From the NCBI GenBank assembly GCA_942492815.1, contig OW818658.1, positions 5,208,125 through 5,272,124 of the forward strand: a DNA stretch of 64,000 nt, written 5' to 3'. Within the stretch, counting starts at the first letter, position 1. Every line of letters begins with the position of its first letter. The notes under the pieces were generated by a model that had not been told where the DNA came from, made no database searches, and saw only the letters and a list, made by a program, of their open reading frames with translations. The translations under genes and the position numbers were made by a program. Positions 10,442 through 57,721 of this stretch are shown here, piece by piece. This stretch comes from Candidatus Hydrogenedentales bacterium. GTDB taxonomy: Bacteria > Hydrogenedentota > Hydrogenedentia > Hydrogenedentales > JAEUWI01.

Positions 10442-10475
10442 GGCCACGTGCAGAATGCACGTGGCCATATTTTTT
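10442..10475 (+). terminator. Rho-independent terminator of the SDR-SDR-wrbA operon
   Basis: Perfect hairpin GGCCACGTGCA-gaa-TGCACGTGGCC followed by ATATTTTTT, 14 nt after the wrbA stop. Confidence 0.75.
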
Positions 10476-10476
10476 A

Positions 10477-10586
10477 CCACGGATGGCACGGATATCACGG
10501 ATGAAGAGTGTGAGATATCGGGAAGTCGCTGAGCACGTTCGAAATGCCCGATTTTATTTCATCCGTGTTATCCGTGCCATCCGTGG
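10477..10586. repeat. Long inverted repeat (27-bp arms, 26/27 match) enclosing ~56 bp
   Basis: CCACGGATGGCACGGATATCACGGATG at 10477-10503 and its reverse complement at 10560-10586, between convergent wrbA and hydrolase genes. Confidence 0.6.
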
Positions 10587-10600
10587 CAGGAAATCTATCG

Positions 10601-12408: not shown

Positions 12409-13140
12409 ATGCTCCACAAATGTTTCATCGGAACCGACGCCGCCCAACTCGCCTTCTGGGACGTCCAGCACACCCGCACCGGCGCGGAGTCGATGGAACT
12501 TCCGGAGCTCGATGAGCTATGGAAGGCCGACGCCCTGGGCGGTCGCGTTTTCTTCATCAACACCGGATCGAACGGCGCCTGGGATGTGCATCTCTATGTG
12601 GACGAAGCCGTTCCCGATGATGTGCTCGTGAACTACAAGACCTTGAATCGCCGATTCTTGCTCCGCTGCCCCTCGGGTCGGCTCATCGCGGACGGGGCGG
12701 AATTCTATATGGCCAGCGCGGAGGAAACGCCCGGGTCGGAGGACGCCATCCAGGTTCCGGTGGGCGACTATGAGCTGCAACTGCACGAACTCTGTGCCGC
12801 TGACCTGGACGACCCCGCCTACCTTACTACTGTCGTAAGCAGGGACGACCTGGACTACTACCTGAGCAGGAACTCGGGATTCGGATGGGGCTGCGCGGGC
12901 CTGATCGCAGGCGCGATCATCGGCGCAATCACCCATTGGTACTGGGGCCTGTTCGTCGCGATGGGCGTGATCGTCTGGGGCGGTGTGAAACGCTGGCGGC
13001 ACCAGAACGATACCCGCTTCGCCGATATCGAATCGCGCCTCGACACGGATCGCAATCAGTACGCTTTCTTTATTTGCTCGCTGCGGCCCATTGGTGCAGA
13101 CTCCGTTCTTCGAGGCGGCTGGTATAATTTTTCGGGGTGA
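12409..13140 (+). CDS. Hypothetical protein with C-terminal transmembrane anchor
   Basis: Internal ATG at 12409 of ORF 12088..13140 (MLHKCFIGTDAAQLAFWD...); hydrophobic stretch GLIAGAIIGAITHWYWGLFVAMGVIVWGG. Confidence 0.45.
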   Translation: MLHKCFIGTDAAQLAFWDVQHTRTGAESMELPELDELWKADALGGRVFFINTGSNGAWDVHLYVDEAVPDDVLVNYKTLNRRFLLRCPSGRLIADGAEFYMASAEETPGSEDAIQVPVGDYELQLHELCAADLDDPAYLTTVVSRDDLDYYLSRNSGFGWGCAGLIAGAIIGAITHWYWGLFVAMGVIVWGGVKRWRHQNDTRFADIESRLDTDRNQYAFFICSLRPIGADSVLRGGWYNFSG

Positions 13141-13143
13141 CTC

Positions 13144-13466
13144 AGGGACAGCGTCGCCCCGTGATCGAAACGTGTAAGATGCGTTGCGCACCCGTTGTTT
13201 CCTCCAAGTCGAGGGAGGCTTGCTACAACCGGCGAGGCTGTCCTGTCGCCAAGGAGAGCAGCCCGCACGATCAACAGTAGCTCTGCACTGAGAAAGTAGC
13301 CTTCAGTAGAATACTTCGCGAAGATAGAGTCTATTACTAATGCACCGGGTCACGACGTCAGACAACAGGACAGCCCCGCCTGTTGACGTGCACTCCGCCT
13401 GGTTAAAGATCACTGGTTGACACGCAGCGTCATCGCGCATCCACATCACGGGGCGACGCTGTCCCT
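13144..13466. repeat. 21-bp perfect inverted repeat pair flanking ~281 bp; one arm encodes the last codons of the GH92 gene
   Basis: AGGGACAGCGTCGCCCCGTGA at 13144-13164 and reverse complement at 13446-13466 (reads HRDSVAP-stop on the minus strand). Confidence 0.7.
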
Positions 13467-15800
13467 ATGTGTCATCACAAAGCGCAACTCGCCCCCACCC
13501 GCGATTTCGTCGTGGGTGAAGTAGGTGCGATCGAGCACCTTTCCATTCAGCGAAACGCTATCAACGTATAAATTCTCCGGCGCGTAATTGTCGGCGATGA
13601 CGGTCAGGGTCTTCCCCTCGCCCATATCAACAACGGCCTTCGCAAACAGGGGCGCGCCGATCTCGTAGCGCGTGGTGCCCGCGATGGGATAAAAACCCAG
13701 CGCGCTGAAGACATACCACGCCGATAGCGTCCCGCCGTCGTCGTTGCCATCGAGGCCCGCGTAGTGGTCCGCATACTTCGTGTCTAGAATGTGGCGCACC
13801 CACTTCTGCGTGAGGTCGGGTCGGCCCACCGCATTGAAAAGGTAGGCCGCATGAAAGTAGGGCTCGTTGCCGTGCCAGTAGTGGGAGCCGGGATGCCAGT
13901 CGCCCAGGGTGTCATTGGACTTTTCAAAGTAGTCCTCCAGCTCCGCGACGAACTGCTCCTTGTTCGGAAACAGCGAGACAAGCCCTTCGCCGTCAAACGG
14001 CACGCCCCAGCGCCACATCATGGCGCTACCTTCCACAAAATCGTCCGTGAACTCGCGGCCCGAATCGGTGTAGCTCAGCACGAGCGGATCGAACTTGTCC
14101 GTGAAGGCACCCCCACTATCGCGCGGCACAAAGAACAGCCGCGTGGGGTCCCATACATTCCGATAGGACTGGGCGTGCTTCGCGAAGACCGACGCGTCGT
14201 GGGCCTTGCCCAAGTCCGCCGCGAGAAGCGAGAGGGCGTGGTCACACCAGGAATATTCCAGCGTCGCCGACACCGCATCCGACATGGTGTCCGAAGGACA
14301 GTAACCATGTTGGAGATAGCCCTCCAGCCCTTCGCGCCCGGCGAACTTGGACCATTCAGGCTTGCCCGTGAGAGCGGTCTGGCGCATCATGGCGTAGGCC
14401 GCTTCAATATCGAAATCACGCACGCCTTTCAGCCACGCCTCGGAGACCGCCACATCCGCCGGGGTGCCGAACATGCAATTGGTGTAGCCCGCGCCCGAGG
14501 GCCAGCGGGGCAGGCAACCGCCCGCCTTGCCCATCTCCACCAGCGAGATCATCATGTCTCGTTGCTCCTTTTGCGCGATCAGATTGTAGAGCGGGTGAAC
14601 GGTTCGGAAGGAGTCCCACAGGGAGAAATCGGTGTAGTAGGTGGTGCCTGGAGTCACCGTATGCACCGCACGGTCGAAGCCCGTGTACTCCCCGTTCACA
14701 TCATTGAAGGTGGTCGGCATTTGCATCGTGCGGTAGAGCGCGGTGGTAAAGATACGCCGCTGCGCCTCGCTCCCACCTTCGATCTGGATTCGAGAGAGAT
14801 GGCTCTCCCATTGATCGCGGGCCTGGGCATAGATTTCCTCGAAGGTTTTTCCCGCCACTTCCGCTTCCAGATTCTCCCGAGCGTTCCCGATACTCACATA
14901 CGAAATCGCGAGCCGCACCTCCACAATCTGGCTTTCCGGCGAGGGTGAAAAGGCGAGCGTGGCTCCGATGTAATCGCCGCTTATCGCAGCGCTGTTTGTG
15001 CTGAATTCGTTTCCGCTCCATGTGCCGTGGCTCGCGATGGGCTTGTCGAACTTCGCAACGAAGAACACATCGAGCCCGTCGTAGCGCCCTGAAAACGATC
15101 CATGGATGCGAATGCTTCCTTCCACTTCGCGCTGGTCGGGCCGGATAGTCACCGTCCCCTTCTCGCTCCGCTTGTCTCCGATGACACTGCTGACATCAAT
15201 AGCCAGATGGGGCATCGTTCCGCCGGGGAAAGTGTAGCGGTGTACCCCGACGCGCGGTGTTGCGGTTAGCTCAACAAGTATATTCTCCTCCTGAAGCCGA
15301 ACGGCATAGTAACCGGGAAAGGCTTTCTCCTCCGTGTGAGAAAAGATCGCATAGCGTTTCCCATTTGGCTCCTTGCTATCCAGCAATGCCGTAGAGGGAA
15401 AGATGCGGAACACGCCGCCTTCCTGCGCATCCGCCCCGAGCAGGCGCGTGTGGCTGAATCCAACAATCTTGTTGTCACCGTAGAAATAGCCCGAACGGTT
15501 GAAGGCCTCTTCATTGAGCAGCAGCGACGCCGTATCAGGCGCGAGGCGCACCATGCCGAAGGGAACGGTGGCGGCGGGGGAATCGTGGCCGCACATCCAC
15601 GAGTAGCCGCCCGTGGCGATGAAGGGATCTACGCTGGCCCCGAGCTTGCCGGGTTCGATTGCGGTTTCCAGCGCACCGGGCTTTGGGCTCACGATTGATC
15701 GGTAGGTGCCCCAGACGCCCAGCAAGGCCAGTACCGGAATGGTCAGGATCACCAGTGCCACGATCAGCATCCACTTGAGAATTCGCTTGAGTCTTTTCAT
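13446..15800 (-). CDS. Glycoside hydrolase family 92 (alpha-1,2-mannosidase-like), secreted/membrane-anchored
   Basis: 784 aa; N-terminal signal anchor; GH92-type motifs HGNEPYFHAAYLF and GNDDGGTLSAWYVFSALGFYP. Confidence 0.9.
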   Translation of the reverse strand: MKRLKRILKWMLIVALVILTIPVLALLGVWGTYRSIVSPKPGALETAIEPGKLGASVDPFIATGGYSWMCGHDSPAATVPFGMVRLAPDTASLLLNEEAFNRSGYFYGDNKIVGFSHTRLLGADAQEGGVFRIFPSTALLDSKEPNGKRYAIFSHTEEKAFPGYYAVRLQEENILVELTATPRVGVHRYTFPGGTMPHLAIDVSSVIGDKRSEKGTVTIRPDQREVEGSIRIHGSFSGRYDGLDVFFVAKFDKPIASHGTWSGNEFSTNSAAISGDYIGATLAFSPSPESQIVEVRLAISYVSIGNARENLEAEVAGKTFEEIYAQARDQWESHLSRIQIEGGSEAQRRIFTTALYRTMQMPTTFNDVNGEYTGFDRAVHTVTPGTTYYTDFSLWDSFRTVHPLYNLIAQKEQRDMMISLVEMGKAGGCLPRWPSGAGYTNCMFGTPADVAVSEAWLKGVRDFDIEAAYAMMRQTALTGKPEWSKFAGREGLEGYLQHGYCPSDTMSDAVSATLEYSWCDHALSLLAADLGKAHDASVFAKHAQSYRNVWDPTRLFFVPRDSGGAFTDKFDPLVLSYTDSGREFTDDFVEGSAMMWRWGVPFDGEGLVSLFPNKEQFVAELEDYFEKSNDTLGDWHPGSHYWHGNEPYFHAAYLFNAVGRPDLTQKWVRHILDTKYADHYAGLDGNDDGGTLSAWYVFSALGFYPIAGTTRYEIGAPLFAKAVVDMGEGKTLTVIADNYAPENLYVDSVSLNGKVLDRTYFTHDEIAGGGELRFVMTHRDSVAP

Positions 15801-15907: not shown

Positions 15908-15943
15908 ACAAAATAAAAGAGCGCCGGGCATTCCCGGCGCTCT
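15908..15943 (-). terminator. Rho-independent terminator downstream of gyrA
   Basis: 10-bp stem AGAGCGCCGG/CCGGCGCTCT with a U-tract (TTTATTTTGT) following on the minus strand, about 30 nt after the gyrA stop. Confidence 0.7.
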
Positions 15944-15971
15944 GGTACTTCCATTGTGTTCGAGCAGGCGG

Positions 15972-18584: not shown

Positions 18585-18989
18585 AGTTCGAAGCGGAGCT
18601 TCGGGTACTGCATTTCCAAGCGGAGCTCTTGACATTATCCATAAATTCTTTTGGATAGGAGACTATTTTATTAGTCCCGAAGGGACGGCATATCGTAGCC
18701 CAGGGTGGAGCGAGGCACGAGCGAAACCCTGGGTATTGTTGCAATAAGATCACTAGCCCCAGCGGGGCGGCATAGGAGAACGAGGGAAATCGTCCCCGGT
18801 CTTCTATGCCATCCCTTCGGGATTTAAGAGTGTTTGGGCCAGTTGACCCAGGGTTCCGCTCGTACCTCGCTTCACCCTGGGCTACGATATGCCGCCACTG
18901 CGTGGCTAATTGGACAACTTTATGTAAACCGTTTCAGTGTAATAGCTGTAAATTTATGGGTAATGACAAAAGCGAAGCCTGGGAACGAG
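18585..18989. repeat. Family-1 palindromic structured repeat element (~400 bp), copy A, in the gyrB-gyrA intergenic region
   Basis: Left module TAGTCCCGAAGGGACGGCA...GTAGCCCAGGGTGGAGCGAGGCACGAGCGAAACCCTGGG and its inverted counterpart on the right arm; related copies at 24621-25001, 27928-28258 and 28354-28689. Confidence 0.75.
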
Positions 18990-24423: not shown

Positions 24424-24471
24424 GGTTTCAATCAGCCTTTTCCCGCAGGGTTTCTGATAGTTCCGCTTCCT

Positions 24472-24600
24472 GGGGACGTACCGCCGCACTGGCACCCGAC
24501 ACAAGCGAGGTGAATGCTAGGGCCTTCTCCTCAGCCCGGTTAAGCGAGGCCCATACCAAAGCGGCGGCATGTCCCGGTAGATGCTGGAATCGTGACGCGA
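24472..24600. repeat. Family-2 structured repeat, partial solo unit
   Basis: GGGGACGTACCGCCGC ... GCGGCGGCATGTCCCGGTAGATGCTGGAATCGTGACGCG boxes shared with the tandem units at 50337-50855 and 57074-57720. Confidence 0.7.
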
Positions 24601-24620
24601 GAACTTTTCCTCTCGTTTCC

Positions 24621-25001
24621 CTCGTTCCCAAGCTCCGCTCTTGTCATTACCCACAAGTTTCGCGAGATAGGTGTCTATTGCTTTAGTCCCGAAGGGACGT
24701 CATATCGTAGCCCAGGGTGGAGCGAGGTACGAGCGAAACCCTGGGTATTATGGAAAAAATTCATTAGCCCCAGCGGGGCGGCATAGAAGAACCGGCAATC
24801 CATCCCTGGTTTTCTGTGTCATCCCTTCTGGATTCAATGTTTTTGGGGTCCGGTGACCCGGGGTTCCGCTCCTACCTCGCTGTACCCTGGGCTACGATAT
24901 GCCGCCACTACGTGGCTAATCAGATGCATTTCTGTGATCTGTTGCAGTGTCCTATGCTTAAGAACATATGGGCAATGACAAGAGCTCCGCTTGGGAACGA
25001 G
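24621..25001. repeat. Family-1 palindromic structured repeat element, copy B
   Basis: Terminal arms CTCGTTCCCAAGCTCCGCTCTTGTCATTACCC / GGGCAATGACAAGAGCTCCGCTTGGGAACGAG are inverted repeats; internal modules near-identical to copy A. Confidence 0.75.
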
Positions 25002-25030
25002 TGAAGGAGGATATTGTGGGCCCAGGGCAA

Positions 25031-27927: not shown

Positions 27928-28258
27928 GGTGGTACCTCGAAGGGCCGGAAGGCGTTAGCCACGAAGTGGCGGCAGTTTGTAGCCTGGGGTGGAGCGAGGC
28001 ACGAGCGCAACCCCAGGATCACCAAACAAACACATCGAATCCGCGAAGCGGATGCCAGATTGCGATAACCCCGCTCTGCCATCCGCCGCAGGCGGATTCA
28101 ACCAGTGGGGGATTCGGACCTGGGGCTGAAGCCCCAGGCTAATGACTGATGTCCACTTCGTGGACTAAGAAAACGCTCGGAGAACACCGTCCCCTGTGCC
28201 GTCTTTCCCATATTCCTGGTTCACTCGTTCCCAATTCGTAATTCATAATTCATAATTC
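27928..28258. repeat. Family-1-like structured repeat element, tandem unit 1 downstream of hsdS
   Basis: Contains TAGCCACGAAGTGGCGGCA hairpin, CCTGGGGTGGAGCGAGGCACGAGCGCAACCCCAGG hairpin and mirrored GTCCACTTCGTGGAC / CCTGGGGCTGAAGCCCCAGG hairpins. Confidence 0.7.
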
Positions 28259-28353: not shown

Positions 28354-28689
28354 GCGGAAAAGTGGTACCTCGAACGGCCGGAAGGCGTTAGCCACGAAGT
28401 GGCGGCAGTTTGTAGCCTGGGGTGGAGCGAGGCACGAGCGCAACCCCAGGATCACCAAACAAACACATCGAATCCGCGAAGCGGATGGCAGGTCACGAAG
28501 ACCATGCTCTGCCATCCGCTTCGCGGATTCAAAGAGTGGGGCATTCGGACCTGGGGCTGAAGCCCCAGGCTAATGACTGATGTCCACTTCGTGGACTAAG
28601 AAAACGCTCGGAGAACACCTCCCCCTGTACCGTTTTCCCCATATTCCTGGTTCACTCACACCCAATTCGTAATTCATAGTTCATAATTC
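28354..28689. repeat. Family-1-like structured repeat element, tandem unit 2 directly abutting the hsdS stop
   Basis: Near-identical to 27928-28258; includes a 22-bp perfect inverted repeat GAATCCGCGAAGCGGATGGCAG / CTGCCATCCGCTTCGCGGATTC. Confidence 0.7.
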
Positions 28690-30264
28690 TCAATTCGTCA
28701 GCGCGCTGACGCCCGCTTCCAGCAGCGCCACCGCCGTCCGGCGCGACGTCGCGATCTGCGCCTCCAACTGGTCCACTAGCCCCATCAACTCCTCCACCCG
28801 CGCCACGATGCGGCGTTGTTCCGCGAGGGGTGGGAGAGGAAATTGAATTGAACAAATAGTTTTCATGTTCAAAAATGGCTGGACTGCCTCGGATGCAATC
28901 CCACGAAGATACTCGGCTATAGCATTCAAGTAGATGCACAAATACTGGGCCGTAACCACCTCACCTACGCGAAATCTGCACAAACCCGTTGTGGAGAGCA
29001 TCCCCTCCGGCATCGACTCCGGATAGATGGCACAGAGTCCAATGCTTCCGACTTTACCTAAGAGTACATCGTTCGGCAATACGTTGTGCCGCCTCAGCAA
29101 CGCGAACTTTTCCTCTCGAATGTATCGAAGGTCGTTGGGATTAAACCTAAACGGCTTAACATTCACCATTCGAATCACGGGGACACCCGTCTCTATGTAA
29201 TCCGTCTTTATGTTTATAGATTGACCGAAGGGCCCGTCGACAATCGCTGACTCTGAAGCATTCCCTATCTCGCCAATTCTGCACCACGTCCAGGATTCTG
29301 GAAGCGGATGGTTGTGCCCACTCAGGCTAGAATCAGCCAGTGCTCTTGGTTTACGCATCTCCCCTGATTTAATCGCGATTTGTTTAGCGCTTTCCACCCT
29401 CGCGAGGAGCTCCTCCGCCCCTTCATCTGCCGGGTCCTGGGGCACGAGCTTTCCCCGAACGGCGAGGGTGAGGATGGACTTGCGGAGGTCGGCGGGGTCG
29501 ATGGGGCAGGCCGGGTGAAAGAGGAGCTTGAGGTTTTCCGGGGTCGGGTCCTCGTTGAACCGGGACACGCTGGCGCGGGCGAGATCGGCGTGCCGCGCGT
29601 CCCGTTCCCGCTGCTGCGCCTCCAGCCGGTCACACAGGGCCATCAAGGCATCCACCTTCGCCACAATCCGCTTCTGCTCCGCGAGCGGCGGGAGGGGAAT
29701 CTCGAATCGCTCAATCATCCCTTTTGTCAGCGCCTGCCGGGTTGCTCCAACTTGTACATCATCGATCATCACTTGAATCGCCGGACTGGCCAGAAACTTC
29801 GCAAGGAACACCGGGTCCAGATCGGGTGTGGGACGTATTATAGTCACGTGCTGGTTCACCCGCGCGCCCACCATCTCCACTGGCGCCGTCGTGACTCGGC
29901 CAATCGACGCACCTGTGATATTGAGGAGAACGTCATCCGCCTGCACGATCACATTCGAGAGCTTATCTGCTTGTTCGCTCGTCAAGAACACAAGGCCGAG
30001 AGGTTCGAAACCGCGAAAGTGAACGTTCATCGAACGAATGAGCGGAATCCCTTGAGTCACGTAAGAGACCCGGCCTCCCGACGGTGTTGCACCACTGCCG
30101 ATCTTGGAAGCCAACGACTTGAGAGTCACCAAAGGCCAGGGCTCGCCAACCGGCAACAGTTTTCCCGAGAAGGCAAGGTGAAGCACCAGTTCCCGCATCT
30201 TGTCCACAGCCCTGGGCGCGTCGGCGAACAGCTCAAAGTTCTCAAAAAAAGTGTCGAGGTTCAT
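28690..30264 (-). CDS. hsdS: Type I restriction-modification specificity subunit HsdS (two target-recognition domains)
   Basis: Central and C-terminal conserved repeats LPPLAEQKRIVAKVDALM... and LPPLAEQRRIVARVEELM...; ATG at 30264 preferred (ORF track start 30297). Confidence 0.9.
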   Translation of the reverse strand: MNLDTFFENFELFADAPRAVDKMRELVLHLAFSGKLLPVGEPWPLVTLKSLASKIGSGATPSGGRVSYVTQGIPLIRSMNVHFRGFEPLGLVFLTSEQADKLSNVIVQADDVLLNITGASIGRVTTAPVEMVGARVNQHVTIIRPTPDLDPVFLAKFLASPAIQVMIDDVQVGATRQALTKGMIERFEIPLPPLAEQKRIVAKVDALMALCDRLEAQQRERDARHADLARASVSRFNEDPTPENLKLLFHPACPIDPADLRKSILTLAVRGKLVPQDPADEGAEELLARVESAKQIAIKSGEMRKPRALADSSLSGHNHPLPESWTWCRIGEIGNASESAIVDGPFGQSINIKTDYIETGVPVIRMVNVKPFRFNPNDLRYIREEKFALLRRHNVLPNDVLLGKVGSIGLCAIYPESMPEGMLSTTGLCRFRVGEVVTAQYLCIYLNAIAEYLRGIASEAVQPFLNMKTICSIQFPLPPLAEQRRIVARVEELMGLVDQLEAQIATSRRTAVALLEAGVSALTN

Positions 30265-30676
30265 TGTACCCCCAGGGACTGACGCGCGCAGGCGCACTTG
30301 TCGCGAGCGGCACAGACCAGGCGGTCAATCGGCGATGGTGAAAGCGGCAGGCACGCCCATGCGCGTGGCTGTCCCGTCGTGAGGGAGATGCACGCGATAC
30401 TCAAAGACAGGCCCGGTCCGCGACACGCCCCCTGAATACGGGCGTCGCGCGTGCGTCGAGGGCGCTCGGGCCACGACGGGACAGCCACGGACGTTGAAAT
30501 ACCTGTTGCTCGTAAACGACCCCCGTCAATCCATGGTGCCTTTGCTACCGGAATACACCGGTCCGCGTCAGTCCCTGTGAGACTGCCCTTCACACCATCG
30601 CAGGCCCCTCGCAGGCAAGTCGCATCGGCGACTGACGCGACGCCACGGGCACGGGAAAGCCAACCGGAGCGGCCAG

Positions 30677-32350: not shown

Positions 32351-32394
32351 GGATTGGGCTTGCTTCTACGTGCGCGATTGCACGGGTGAGTTTA

Positions 32395-32467
32395 CAGGGA
32401 CGGCAGGGACATCAGGGACAACAGGAAGAGAGTATTCTGCCGTCCCTGATGTCGCTGCTGTCCCTGT
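32395..32467. promoter_or_regulatory. Imperfect inverted repeat with GGGAC heptad repeats between hsdR stop and hsdM start
   Basis: CAGGGACGGCAGGGACATCAGGGACAACAGG ... CTGCCGTCCCTGATGTCGCTGCTGTCCCTG in the 143-nt hsdR-hsdM spacer. Confidence 0.45.
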
Positions 32468-32493
32468 GAATGAGGGCGGATAATCCGCACATT

Positions 32494-50277: not shown

Positions 50278-50291
50278 GCACGTAAATCTGA

Positions 50292-50331
50292 ATCGCCGCG
50301 CTCCACGATGCTGGAGCGCGGCGATTTTTTG
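50292..50331 (+). terminator. Rho-independent terminator after the speH / DHS-like operon
   Basis: ATCGCCGCGCTCCA-cgatgc-TGGAGCGCGGCGAT followed by TTTTTTGT. Confidence 0.8.
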
Positions 50332-50336
50332 TCTGA

Positions 50337-50855
50337 GGGGACGTACCGCCGCAAATAAACCCCGTAAAGGGCACACCGCCCTACGCCCTATGAGTCCATT
50401 CAACCGAGGGACGTTCACGCCAACGCGGCGGCATGTCCCTGGGGATGCTGGAATCACGACGCGGAATAAATCCAGGGCGCTCCATTACATCCGCCGGGAC
50501 GGGCACGCGCGCTGCCAGGAGCATCGCAAATAACAGTCATAGGAATGCGTGGAGTGACCCGCGCCCACACAAGTCGCGGGCGCGAGTCCGTCCCAGGGGA
50601 CGTACCGCCGACAATATTCCCCGTGAAGGGCACACCACCCTGCGCGCTCTGGATCCATTCAACCGAGGAACGTTCACACCAAGGCGGCATGTCCCTGGGG
50701 ATACTGGAATCGTGACGCGGAATAATCCAAGACCCTCCATTACGTCCACCGGGACGGGCACGCGCGTTGCCGGGAGCGTCGCACATAACCGTCATAGGAA
50801 TGTGCGGAGTGACCCGCGCCCGCGCCCGCAGCCGTCGCGGGCGCGAGTCCGTCCC
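50337..50855. repeat. Family-2 structured repeat, two tandem units (~258 + 261 bp)
   Basis: Units about 85% identical; each has a 5' GGGGACGTACCGCC box, a central GGCGGCATGTCCCTGGGGAT(G/A)CTGGAATC(A/G)TGACGCGG box and a 3' GGGACGGGCACGCGCG...CGCGGGCGCGAGTCCGTCCC box. Confidence 0.8.
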
Positions 50856-50856
50856 T

Positions 50857-51699
50857 TTACGCGCCCCACTTCTCGCGGATCATCTTCAGGCCGTTCGTGG
50901 CGAGGTACTCTTCGCTCGGAGCCATGACGCGCCAGATGCAGGTGGCACCGGCAAGATCGGGGATCCAGGAGCCAAAGGCTTCGATTACCATCCAGCCGTC
51001 GTAGCCGATTTCCTTGAGTGCCGCGAAGCAGGTGTCGTAGTCGATGTGGTCGTCGCCGGGTGTCGCACGGTCGTTCGCGGAGATATGCACGTGGTTGATG
51101 CAGTTGCCACCGGCGCGGATCGCCTCGGCGAAATTCTTCTCTTCGATGTTGGCGTGGAAGGTGTCGAACATCTCCCCCACCGCTTCGATGCCAACGGCGC
51201 GCACAAGATTCGCGGAATCCGCCTGGGTGTTGAGGAAATACGTCTCGAAGCGGTTCAAGGGCTCGATGGCGAGTTTGATGCCTTTCTCCGTGGCGTGGGC
51301 ACCCACTTCACGGAAGCCTTGGATCGCGCGATCCATTTCATCAGGCACGGGGCCGCGTCCGATGAGCCGACCCACCGGGCTGTACAGGGGGCCGCAGAGG
51401 GCCTCGGCGCCCAGCACCACACAAGCGTCTATGCAGGCTTTGAGATGGACGACAGCCGCCTTGCGCTCGCCTTCGTCTTCACCGATCAGGTTCGTGCCGG
51501 CGGGCAACACCGTCACCGCCGTCCGGCCCAGGCCCAGCGCGTCGCACTTGGCGGCCAGCTTAGCCCAGGGGGATCCATCGGCCGAAAACATGGGAAACTC
51601 CACGCCGTCGAAGCCCCAGCCTTTGATCTGTTCCAGCAGGGGCAGGTGGCTCTCGTCCGCGCCACCGGTCCACAGCAACAAGTTCATCCCGACTTTCAT
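50857..51699 (-). CDS. Sugar phosphate isomerase/epimerase (xylose-isomerase-like TIM barrel)
   Basis: 280 aa; TIM-barrel family pattern (...AIEPLNRFETYFLNT..., ...HVHISANDR...). Confidence 0.85.
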   Translation of the reverse strand: MKVGMNLLLWTGGADESHLPLLEQIKGWGFDGVEFPMFSADGSPWAKLAAKCDALGLGRTAVTVLPAGTNLIGEDEGERKAAVVHLKACIDACVVLGAEALCGPLYSPVGRLIGRGPVPDEMDRAIQGFREVGAHATEKGIKLAIEPLNRFETYFLNTQADSANLVRAVGIEAVGEMFDTFHANIEEKNFAEAIRAGGNCINHVHISANDRATPGDDHIDYDTCFAALKEIGYDGWMVIEAFGSWIPDLAGATCIWRVMAPSEEYLATNGLKMIREKWGA

Positions 51700-51831
51700 G
51701 GGTTATTCTCCTTCTTGAGGGTGCGTCCATCTTTGGAGCGCCCGGGTCTCTTGGGTATGCCCGGCGAGCGGAATCGCCGCCCGCCGAAGGGCCCCGTCAC
51801 TATACGGATGGCCGGGGCTGAAGGCAAACTT

Positions 51832-51924
51832 GAAGGATGAAGGTTAAAGGATGAAGGTTAAAGGATGAAGTATGAAGTGAGCGAGGAACCGCACCCGTTC
51901 TTCAGCCTTCATCCTTCATCCTTC
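51832..51924. promoter_or_regulatory. Direct repeats AAGGATGAAGGTTA (x2.5) facing inverted CTTCATCC repeats in a divergent promoter region
   Basis: GAAGGATGAAGGTTAAAGGATGAAGGTTAAAGGATGAAG ... CTTCATCCTTCATCCTTC between the isomerase start and the PSCyt-family gene start. Confidence 0.45.
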
Positions 51925-52116
51925 AAATTTCATCCAACCCTACCAATTGGTCAGATCGGGCAAATACGACCCGATCCTCGCCATTTTACCATGACACCGG
52001 TGTCTTACGCAGTTTTATTGATATTTTGGCGAAGTCCATCAAAGAAAACTTTATTTCTCCTTGCAACTTTTCCCACCAATAGGGGATGATATACAGAATA
52101 ACGTAGGAGTAGCATC

Positions 52117-57065: not shown

Positions 57066-57073
57066 GGGTACCA

Positions 57074-57720
57074 GGGGACGTACCGCCGCAAAGGCACTTG
57101 GGCAGACGCGGTAAACACGAATCGTCATTGCCACTCGATAGGGACAAAGCCCGCTCTGGTGCGGCGGCATGTCCCGGTGGATGTTGCAACGTGACGTGAA
57201 CACTTCGCGAAGCTTTCGGTAATGGACCCGGTGGATGAAGCCCGACTGGATCCACAAAAACGGTGATGTGGAGCGTTCGCGTGTACTCCACACTTCCACT
57301 GGGACAGGCACGCGCGTTGTCGTAAACTTTGCTCGTATTCGTCATCCTGAATAATCAATATGAACCACGCCCGCAGTAGTCGTGGGCGCGAGTCCGTCCC
57401 CGGGGACGTACCGCCGCAAAGGCACTTGGGCAGACGCGGTAAACACGAATCGCCATGCACACTCGATTTTGACAAAGCACGCTCTGGTGCGGCGGCATGT
57501 CCCTGTGGATGTAGAATCATGACGTGAACGCAACATGTAGTCAACTTGCGGAGAACGCTCGACCGGATTCGCAAAATCGGCGATCTGGAGCGTTCACGCG
57601 CCTTTCGCACATCCACTGGGACGGGCACGCGCGTTGTAAGGTACTTTGCCCACATTCGTCATCCTGAATACTTCAATGTGCACCCCGCTCGCAGTAGTCG
57701 TGGGCGCGAGTCCGTCCCCC
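57074..57720. repeat. Family-2 structured repeat, two tandem units (~328 + 319 bp)
   Basis: Both units start GGGGACGTACCGCCGCAAAGGCACTTGGGCAGACGCGGTAAACACGAATCG and end CGCAGTAGTCGTGGGCGCGAGTCCGTCCCC; shared boxes with 50337-50855. Confidence 0.8.
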
Positions 57721-57721
57721 G

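Follow-up and report, generated by a model that had tools for sequence, protein, structure and literature searches.

A palindromic element conserved at a convergent gene junction of Hydrogenedentota carries the C-terminal codons of a GH92 glycoside hydrolase

A 323-nt palindromic element (positions 13144-13466) fills the junction between two convergent genes in the 64-kb window, the whole stretch of DNA analysed here, and one of its terminal arms contains the last codons of a GH92 glycoside hydrolase gene. The element is an insertion relative to the nearest outgroup, has been inherited vertically at this junction and is constrained at the nucleotide level. We put a probability of roughly 0.55 on the explanation that an old palindromic insertion rewrote the tail of the GH92 protein and that its outer helix was kept for the 3' ends of both transcripts. 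Within that explanation we infer an origin as a repeat element of the REP/BIME/REPIN/MITE-like kind and a 3'-end function exerted at the RNA level.

Flanking genes, repeat arms and fold

The junction and the element are made up of the following features, in which L and R denote the outer arms and L' and R' the inner boxes.

12409-13140, plus strand: convergent gene of 243 aa, no Pfam match, syntenic in all relatives
13144-13165, plus strand: outer arm R, non-coding, perfect reverse complement of L
13166-13225, minus strand: spacer s3 (L' to R), variable, mean pairwise identity 0.57
13226-13246, minus strand: inner box L', ACAGGACAGCCTCGCCGGTTG on the GH92 strand, pairs with R' at 90%
13247-13364, no strand assigned: central segment, contains the palindrome CTTCGCGAAG; free of conserved ORFs and promoter-like sites
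13365-13385, minus strand: inner box R', CAACAGGCGGGGCTGTCCTGT on the GH92 strand, pairs with L', about 70% like outer R
13386-13444, minus strand: spacer s1 (L to R'), variable, mean pairwise identity 0.59
13445-13466, minus strand: outer arm L, GH92-strand sequence AGGGACAGCGTCGCCCCGTGAT; six sense codons (R-D-S-V-A-P), TGA stop, one further base
13446-15800, minus strand: GH92 glycoside hydrolase gene, 784 aa, Pfam Glyco_hydro_92N (PF17678) and Glyco_hydro_92 (PF07971)

The first-pass annotation had described a perfect inverted repeat of 21 bp with its copies 281 bp apart. The repeat is present and exact, but a repeat search gave arms of 22 nt that are complementary at 22/22 positions and have 279 nt between them. 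The six last codons and the stop of the GH92 gene do lie inside the repeat, as that annotation had it: the right-hand arm encodes RDSVAP at 13466-13449 and the TGA stop at 13448-13446, base 13445 ends the arm, and the protein thus terminates in ...VMTHRDSVAP with its last seven codons, stop included, within arm L. The inverted copy had been placed directly after the stop codon of the plus-strand gene (13138-13140); arm R adjoins that gene and begins 3 nt past its stop. A search with the 22-mer allowing up to 3 mismatches returned two sites in the window, both of them the arms, and two such matches were found in 0 of 100 dinucleotide shuffles of the window. With approximately 5e7 position pairs no more than 800 nt apart and a match probability of 4^-22, arithmetic gives about 3e-6 perfect 22-nt inverted pairs within 800 nt expected in 64 kb. 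The arms have the 15-nt core AGGGACAGCGTCGCC, and a pattern search found the motif GGACAGCNNCGCC to be essentially limited to the element. An assembly artefact is ruled out as the source of the 323 nt, because the element was found again in independent assemblies from JGI, ENA, NCBI and Logan.

The plus-strand ORF listed for the convergent gene has 350 aa, a 5' over-extension, and we place the probable start at 12409 because the orthologues have 241-243 aa. Arm R is in frame with this gene, so that 13138-13164 of the plus strand would read ...FSG-stop-LRDSVAP-stop with a second TGA at the end, and both convergent genes end in, or precede, an identical heptapeptide-coding string. This frame is present in eight of nine lineages, the exception being L097 with one extra base. 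Read-through of the 243-aa gene into arm R was dropped as a candidate since the frame is broken in L097, and for the same reason the common frame is probably a by-product of the repeat. The homologues of the GH92 protein come from sources named Candidatus Hydrogenedentes or Hydrogenedentota, and one of them (P0001) equals it in length and is 100% identical along the entire query.

A second inverted repeat (13226-13246 and 13365-13385, 90%) is nested inside the outer arms, and the whole 323 nt form a loose palindrome, alignable to their own reverse complement. The order along the GH92 strand is L, s1 (about 60 nt), R', the centre (about 118 nt), L', s3 (about 60 nt) and R, after which follow GAG and the stop codon of the 243-aa gene. 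Since L is about 70% like L' and R about 70% like R', the element can be read as four related boxes of about 21 nt in the alternating orientation -> <- -> <-. Box R' is identical in the four full-length lineages, the L'/R' pairing is perfect in L096 and L098, and s3 contains a local hairpin CCTCC...GGAGG. The central segment is moderately conserved in the full-length lineages and is deleted in three others.

Both strands are predicted to fold into one long hairpin, with -154.9 kcal/mol (z = -7.3) for the GH92-sense strand and -138.5 kcal/mol (z = -5.7) for the opposite strand. Base composition accounts for part of this difference between strands, as the means of the shuffles are themselves 10 kcal/mol apart (-118 for the GH92 strand, -108 for the other). 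The GH92-sense strand has the stabler fold in seven of nine lineages and the lower RNAalifold consensus energy (-98 vs -88 kcal/mol). None of the small ORFs within the element is conserved across the lineages, and a scan for promoter-like sites inside it found none. Over 12500-14100, Rfam gave 0 matches at E <= 10, nothing in this region reached the gathering threshold, and neither a tRNA nor a tmRNA was found; on these grounds identity with a known RNA was dropped. Terminator-like sites numbered 0 in a scan of 12900-13700, and no U-tract follows the helix on either strand, while canonical terminators are present elsewhere in the window (15911-15950, after gyrA, and 50291-50326). A canonical terminator, including a bidirectional intrinsic one, was rejected as an identity for the element: it has a stem, but with a loop of 279 nt and with no T-run on either strand.

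The junction in relatives and constraint on the arms

The comparison set consisted of nine distinct versions of the junction, taken from the window and 18 contigs of other public assemblies, and these represent nine diverged Hydrogenedentota lineages with the element between the GH92 and 243-aa genes. The distances from stop codon to stop codon are as follows.

L005-L009: 85 bp
L010 and L011: 145 bp
L099: 145 bp
L097: 187 bp
Window: 305 bp
L096: 306 bp
L098: 306 bp
L094, L095 and L012: 315 bp
L092 and L093: 361 bp

Arm L stands at the GH92 end in all nine versions, and arm R lies 3 nt from the other stop codon in each of them except L097 (4 nt). The short versions are missing portions of the interior, and the deletion variants retain both outer arms. 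The L005 junction looks as if a deletion had run from one direct repeat (R') to the other (R), and the repeat left in this shortest variant is imperfect and about 14 bp long. Mismatches between the arms number 1-3 in the relatives and 0 in the window. The additional interior sequence of one of the longest versions (L092, 5505-5530) includes a 15-nt exact match, GGCTGTCCCGTCGTG, to window positions 30365-30381, which are part of an arm of the palindrome 30343-30510; this match suggests that repeat units of this general type may nest into one another at the GH92/243-aa junction.

The nearest outgroup, L002, has a GH92 protein 83% identical and a 243-aa protein about 51% identical to those of the window. 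Its two stop codons are separated by 13 bp, there is no repeat, and its GH92 tail is RVDAKR. In L003 and L004 (GH92 79% identical) another gene lies between the two, again with no repeat. The 34 nt that L002 has between the homologous flanks are missing from the element-bearing loci, and the insertion event was not a clean one, because these 34 nt are absent and no target-site duplication is seen. Survival of the outgroup's GH92 3' end inside the element, as GCGAAGCG-like strings, was considered and rejected, local alignment giving p of at least 0.06 against shuffles.

Past a conserved ...GGELRFxM motif, the 120 best GH92 homologues end in 5-20 unrelated residues, and because of this variation the tail is taken to be free of constraint as protein. 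RDSVAP-like tails occur among them only in members of one 90% cluster, in the forms THRDSVAP, KPRDSVAP, KPRDSVAQ, THRDSVTP, RHRDSVAP and KPGDSVAQ, and all close relatives with such a tail have the inverted copy 85-361 bp away. A comparison of GH92 C-termini in orthologues had been proposed in the first-pass annotation, which named a matching tail without a nearby inverted copy as evidence against its reading; we looked for this case and it did not occur, an RDSVAP-like tail being always accompanied by the copy. A metagenome scan with the GH92 C-terminus yielded one further close locus, a duplicate of L095. The simplest history on these comparisons would be a gain of the element in the ancestor of one Hydrogenedentota clade.

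Identities given below are mean pairwise values across the nine lineages. Synonymous sites of these lineages are near saturation: GH92 third-codon positions have a mean identity of 64.6%, and spacers s1 and s3 have 57-59%. In arm L, third-codon positions are 93.7% identical as against the gene mean of 64.6%, which places the arm in the top 8 of 779 windows, and the last seven GH92 codons (six sense codons and the stop) have 92.9% identity over all sites. Nucleotide conservation begins exactly at the first base of arm L, and the two codons before it vary freely (TH, KP, RH). Non-coding arm R has a mean identity of 0.849 over 21 nt, and all of the 756 neutral windows of 21 consecutive third positions lie below it (mean 0.643, maximum 0.828). 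Across the 9 lineages, identity is 95.6% in the 15-nt core of each arm. These values show purifying selection on the outer arms as nucleic acid, since conversion within a genome cannot hold one sequence across nine lineages, and the peptide RDSVAP is a passenger.

Of the cells of the outer helix, 89.4% are paired when read as the GH92 strand and 89.9% when read as the opposite one, and pairing falls to 32-48% when the partner is slid by 1-3 columns. Only one double change was observed, C-G to A-U in L010 and L099 (Pro to Gln), and L096 holds the half-step of this change. Covariation in the outer helix was not above that of shuffles (79/500 and 186/500; nine lineages). Given the single double change and covariation within the shuffle range, the alignment supports the helix by conservation rather than by covariation. 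G-U outnumber A-C combinations by 3 to 1 in the outer core and by 3 to 1 in the inner stem, few counts in either case; these wobble pairs favour the GH92 strand slightly, and overall pairing is equal on both strands. Functions at the RNA and the DNA level are indistinguishable by these measures, because covariation shows no excess and pairing is strand-equal.

Copy number and other hairpin repeats of the window

A search for further copies of the repeat had been recommended in the first-pass annotation, and blastn, nhmmer and pattern searches found no second copy of the element in the window or in approximately 0.5 Mb of fetched loci. The exact 22-mer was also searched in 185,579 GTDB species genomes, a scan that missed L097, itself an exact carrier of the 22-mer, and is uninformative on the source genome. 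Its single match (L001, 5480-5501) is within a long, repeat-rich beta-helix ORF of a Phycisphaerae MAG, and we judge it to be due to chance because it comprises one arm alone with no element around it. For the sequence searched, a multi-copy repeat was rejected as an identity for the element, the single GTDB match being attributed to chance.

Two kinds of known repeat were compared with the element by their defining properties. As in MITEs, termini complementary at 22/22 positions bound 323 nt without a conserved ORF; no target-site duplication was found, the flanks ...ACACAT and GAGTCA... having no direct repeat, and several copies were found neither in the window and the roughly 0.5 Mb of fetched loci nor in the GTDB species genomes. 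The layout agrees with that of REP, BIME and REPIN sequences, with alternating boxes, spacers of about 60, 118 and 60 nt and a position between convergent stops; in one of the four boxes, 21 nt are coding. The element occurs once in the sequence searched, and no Y1-transposase domain was found in the window. Pfam scans of 40 ORFs across the window returned no recombinase, integrase or transposase domain. The earlier proposal of a MITE-like insertion that supplied the end of the GH92 gene survives in part. That a palindromic element was inserted and supplied the gene end is supported by the outgroup, which has no repeat and a different tail, and by conservation that begins at the arm. An active MITE is contradicted by the single copy in the sequence searched, the lack of a target-site duplication, the fixed locus and the purifying selection.

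The window contains other hairpin repeats, among them a family of alternating X and Y units.

24470-24600, 50335-50464, 50594-50720, 57072-57199 and 57400-57527, plus strand: five nearly identical X units
50454-50597, 50726-50858, 57277-57403 and 57594-57721, minus strand: diverged Y units, which follow four of the X units
30272-30397, plus strand: diverged member of the X/Y family, covariance score 28.9 bits

X units have the form GGGGACGTACCGCCGC...GCGGCGGCATGTCCC with a conserved tail and are on the plus strand throughout. Y units are inverted, with the form GGGGACGGACTCGCGC...GCGCGTGCCCGTCCC, and their stem differs from that of X by compensating changes. The family has no Rfam match. Composites of X and Y measure 265-332 nt and have four arms in the order -> <- -> <- with GGGAC-type tips, and two tandem composites fill the convergent junction 57066-57721 almost exactly, stop to stop. 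Hexamers such as CCTGTC, AGGGAC and GGGACA show a 4-8 fold enrichment between the genes of the window, and hexamers of the GGGAC/GTCCC type sit at the tips of its other hairpin repeats. Membership of the element in the X/Y family was rejected: copies of X and Y score 91-131 bits against their own covariance model, and Y units still reach 19-33 bits under R1, for which only X units were used; the element itself gets 9.7-10.2 bits from R1 and 8.1 bits from R2, the range of unrelated hairpins. Kinship to the tandem units at 57 kb was likewise rejected, with a global alignment inside the shuffle range and an nhmmer match there (E = 0.004) that covers short motifs only. We keep the element out of the family because its covariance scores are generic, and its likeness to the X/Y composites appears to be architectural.

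Several other repeats of the window were recorded. The Acido-Lenti-1 RNA motif (RF01687) is found above its gathering score at 24685-24745 (minus strand), 28119-28166 (plus strand) and 28550-28597 (plus strand), within larger repeated intergenic elements of which 18640-18940 resembles 24590-25030 and 28010-28170 resembles 28440-28600. An intergenic hairpin at 32391-32470, with three CAGGGAC-type repeats per arm (CAGGGACGGCAGGGACATCAGGGACAACAG), exactly spans the interval from one gene's stop codon to the next gene's start. Intergenic inverted repeats made of short tandem motifs occur at 10469-10594 (CACGGATG-type) and 51826-51935 (GGATGAAGGTTAAAG). A type I restriction-modification specificity gene (HsdS, Methylase_S; 28690-30297) has inverted and direct repeats around it (28030-28059, 28463-28537 and 30343-30510). 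Phase variation through inversion classically involves hsdS genes, but the window yielded no recombinase.

Explanations and comparison with known systems

In the explanation that we prefer, a locus-specific palindromic element entered the GH92/243-aa junction in the ancestor of one Hydrogenedentota clade, and a short stretch at the GH92 C-terminus, unconstrained as protein, gave way to residues encoded in its terminal arm. Purifying selection at the nucleic-acid level then held the outer arms, and the interior drifted and lost segments. The likeliest use of the element would be as a long hairpin common to the 3' ends of both transcripts. The helix would begin within the last GH92 codons and 3 nt past the other stop codon, and because it starts at both gene ends the hairpin could set or shield the 3' ends of the RNAs, or act as a site of processing; ribosomes terminating on either mRNA would need to melt it. 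A more specific version, which we hold to be unlikely, is that clamping both convergent stop codons in one long-range stem is itself the selected device. One stop would lie within the helix and the other 3 nt outside, so that ribosomes on either mRNA melt it and the structure decides on 3'-end processing or decay, for example by RNase III-type retroregulation or REP-like ribosome stalling; structure rather than protein would then dictate the last seven codons of GH92.

The same conservation could arise if the four boxes were an array of sequence-specific DNA sites, used for protein binding or synapsis instead of forming an RNA hairpin, with a domesticated RAYT-type transposase, a nucleoid protein or gyrase, as at the BIMEs of E. 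coli, as possible binders. The arms are indeed conserved in sequence beyond what pairing needs, their cores being 95.6% identical despite saturated synonymous sites, covariation does not exceed shuffles and pairing is equal on both strands, and the GGGAC/GTCCC-type hexamers that mark hairpin tips are enriched 4-8 fold intergenically. We nevertheless regard a site array as unlikely: the window encodes no candidate protein, GGACAGCNNCGCC is essentially confined to the element, functional RNA stems also show strong sequence conservation at this divergence, and the deletion variants drop inner boxes and retain the outer pairing. Somewhat fainter is the prospect that the element is a relic with no selected role, whose arms are kept alike by template switching or by gene conversion between them. 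Such a relic would fit arms that are perfect in the window and have 1-3 mismatches in relatives, an L096 intermediate and one double change that single-step template switching could have produced, and an interior prone to deletion as hairpin DNA would be. It fits poorly with one sequence held across nine lineages, which inter-arm conversion cannot achieve, with an arm R that tops every neutral window and frozen synonymous sites in arm L, and with the presence of both arms in all deletion variants.

We consider it very unlikely that the element is a small RNA gene in its own right, or a bidirectional intrinsic terminator of unusual form, and lies next to both genes by chance. Its strong predicted structure and conserved non-coding blocks would suit either identity, as would the place between convergent genes, where bidirectional terminators sit (terminators common to convergent genes are discussed in PMC5381666); against both stand the lack of an Rfam match at E <= 10, of promoter- or terminator-like sites and of a U-tract on either side, a 279-nt loop far from terminator geometry, and an interior that three lineages dispense with. 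Least credible of the alternatives is an inverton, in which the segment 13166-13444 between the arms would be flipped by a recombinase whose gene lies elsewhere. The first-pass annotation had considered both the footprint of an inversion and an invertible switch, while observing that no recombinase gene is adjacent. Its observation extends to 40 ORFs scanned across the window, none of which has a recombinase, integrase or transposase domain. A perfect 22-nt repeat around some 280 bp is of typical inverton size and encloses a nested second repeat, and distant 'master' invertases, which occur in other phyla, count in favour. The interior, however, has the same orientation in 9/9 lineages (p of about 0.004 under free switching, by arithmetic), which leaves an inversion footprint with no evidence and speaks against a switch; no promoter-like site is found inside, both flanking genes point their 3' ends inward, a flip would alter neither protein because the stop codon lies within the arm, and the shortest variant has only the imperfect repeat of about 14 bp.

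The locus is a clean case, found in nature, of protein-level evolution overridden by a non-coding structural element: a palindromic repeat writes the last residues of an enzyme, and synonymous sites there are frozen for the sake of that repeat. Hydrogenedentota, which are known almost only from metagenomes, carry several hairpin-repeat families at convergent junctions, and the data suggest that at least one copy has been retained long enough for a host function. Were the 3'-end function true, the locus would offer a compact model for palindromic repeats exapted as 3'-end signals. Annotators may wish to treat such C-terminal extensions as element-derived.

Several known systems resemble the element in part. 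In REP and BIME clusters, palindromes close to the ends of genes alternate in orientation (PMC2817692, PMC3116915). With REP, BIME and REPIN sequences the element shares GC-rich boxes of about 20 nt that alternate across short linkers (PMC2817692, PMC3116915), a place just past stop codons and between convergent genes, a potential to form hairpins and long vertical persistence at its locus, and L005, with its 85-bp gap, resembles a single REP doublet. It differs in that it was found once, whereas REPs number hundreds per genome, in that one of its boxes lies within coding sequence and no RAYT gene is in the window, and in that it pairs outer with outer and inner with inner boxes and not within each doublet. 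Bacterial MITEs can behave as terminator-like structures and can form in-frame fusions with host genes, and RNase III can cut their mRNA hairpins at the inverted repeats (PMC10969869, PMC2649163). Like such elements (Correia/CREE, ERIC and Rickettsia palindromic elements), the present one is short (323 nt), lacks an ORF, is bounded by terminal inverted repeats and is missing from the nearest outgroup; one of its ends is translated into the C-terminus of a host protein, and its long helix would be a plausible RNase III substrate. Unlike them, it is without a target-site duplication, other copies or a related insertion sequence in the sequence in view, and it is old, under purifying selection and not patchy among strains. 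The X/Y composites of the window itself (57072-57403 and 57400-57721) are similar in length (about 265-332 nt, compared with 323 nt), in their four arms -> <- -> <- with GGGAC-type tips and, for the 57-kb copies, in spanning a convergent junction from stop to stop; one X/Y copy has CTTCGCGAAG at its centre, as does the element. X/Y hairpins, however, close inside their own unit, whereas the outer arms of the element pair with each other, and membership by sequence fails at 8-10 bits. Invertons, including partly intragenic ones, likewise have a repeat of this length around a few hundred bases and may have one arm in a gene, but the element has no nearby recombinase, orientation polymorphism or internal promoter, and its inversion would bring no coding change. 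The element is, in the sequence searched, a single-copy, selected form of a known kind of bacterial palindromic element and not a switch.
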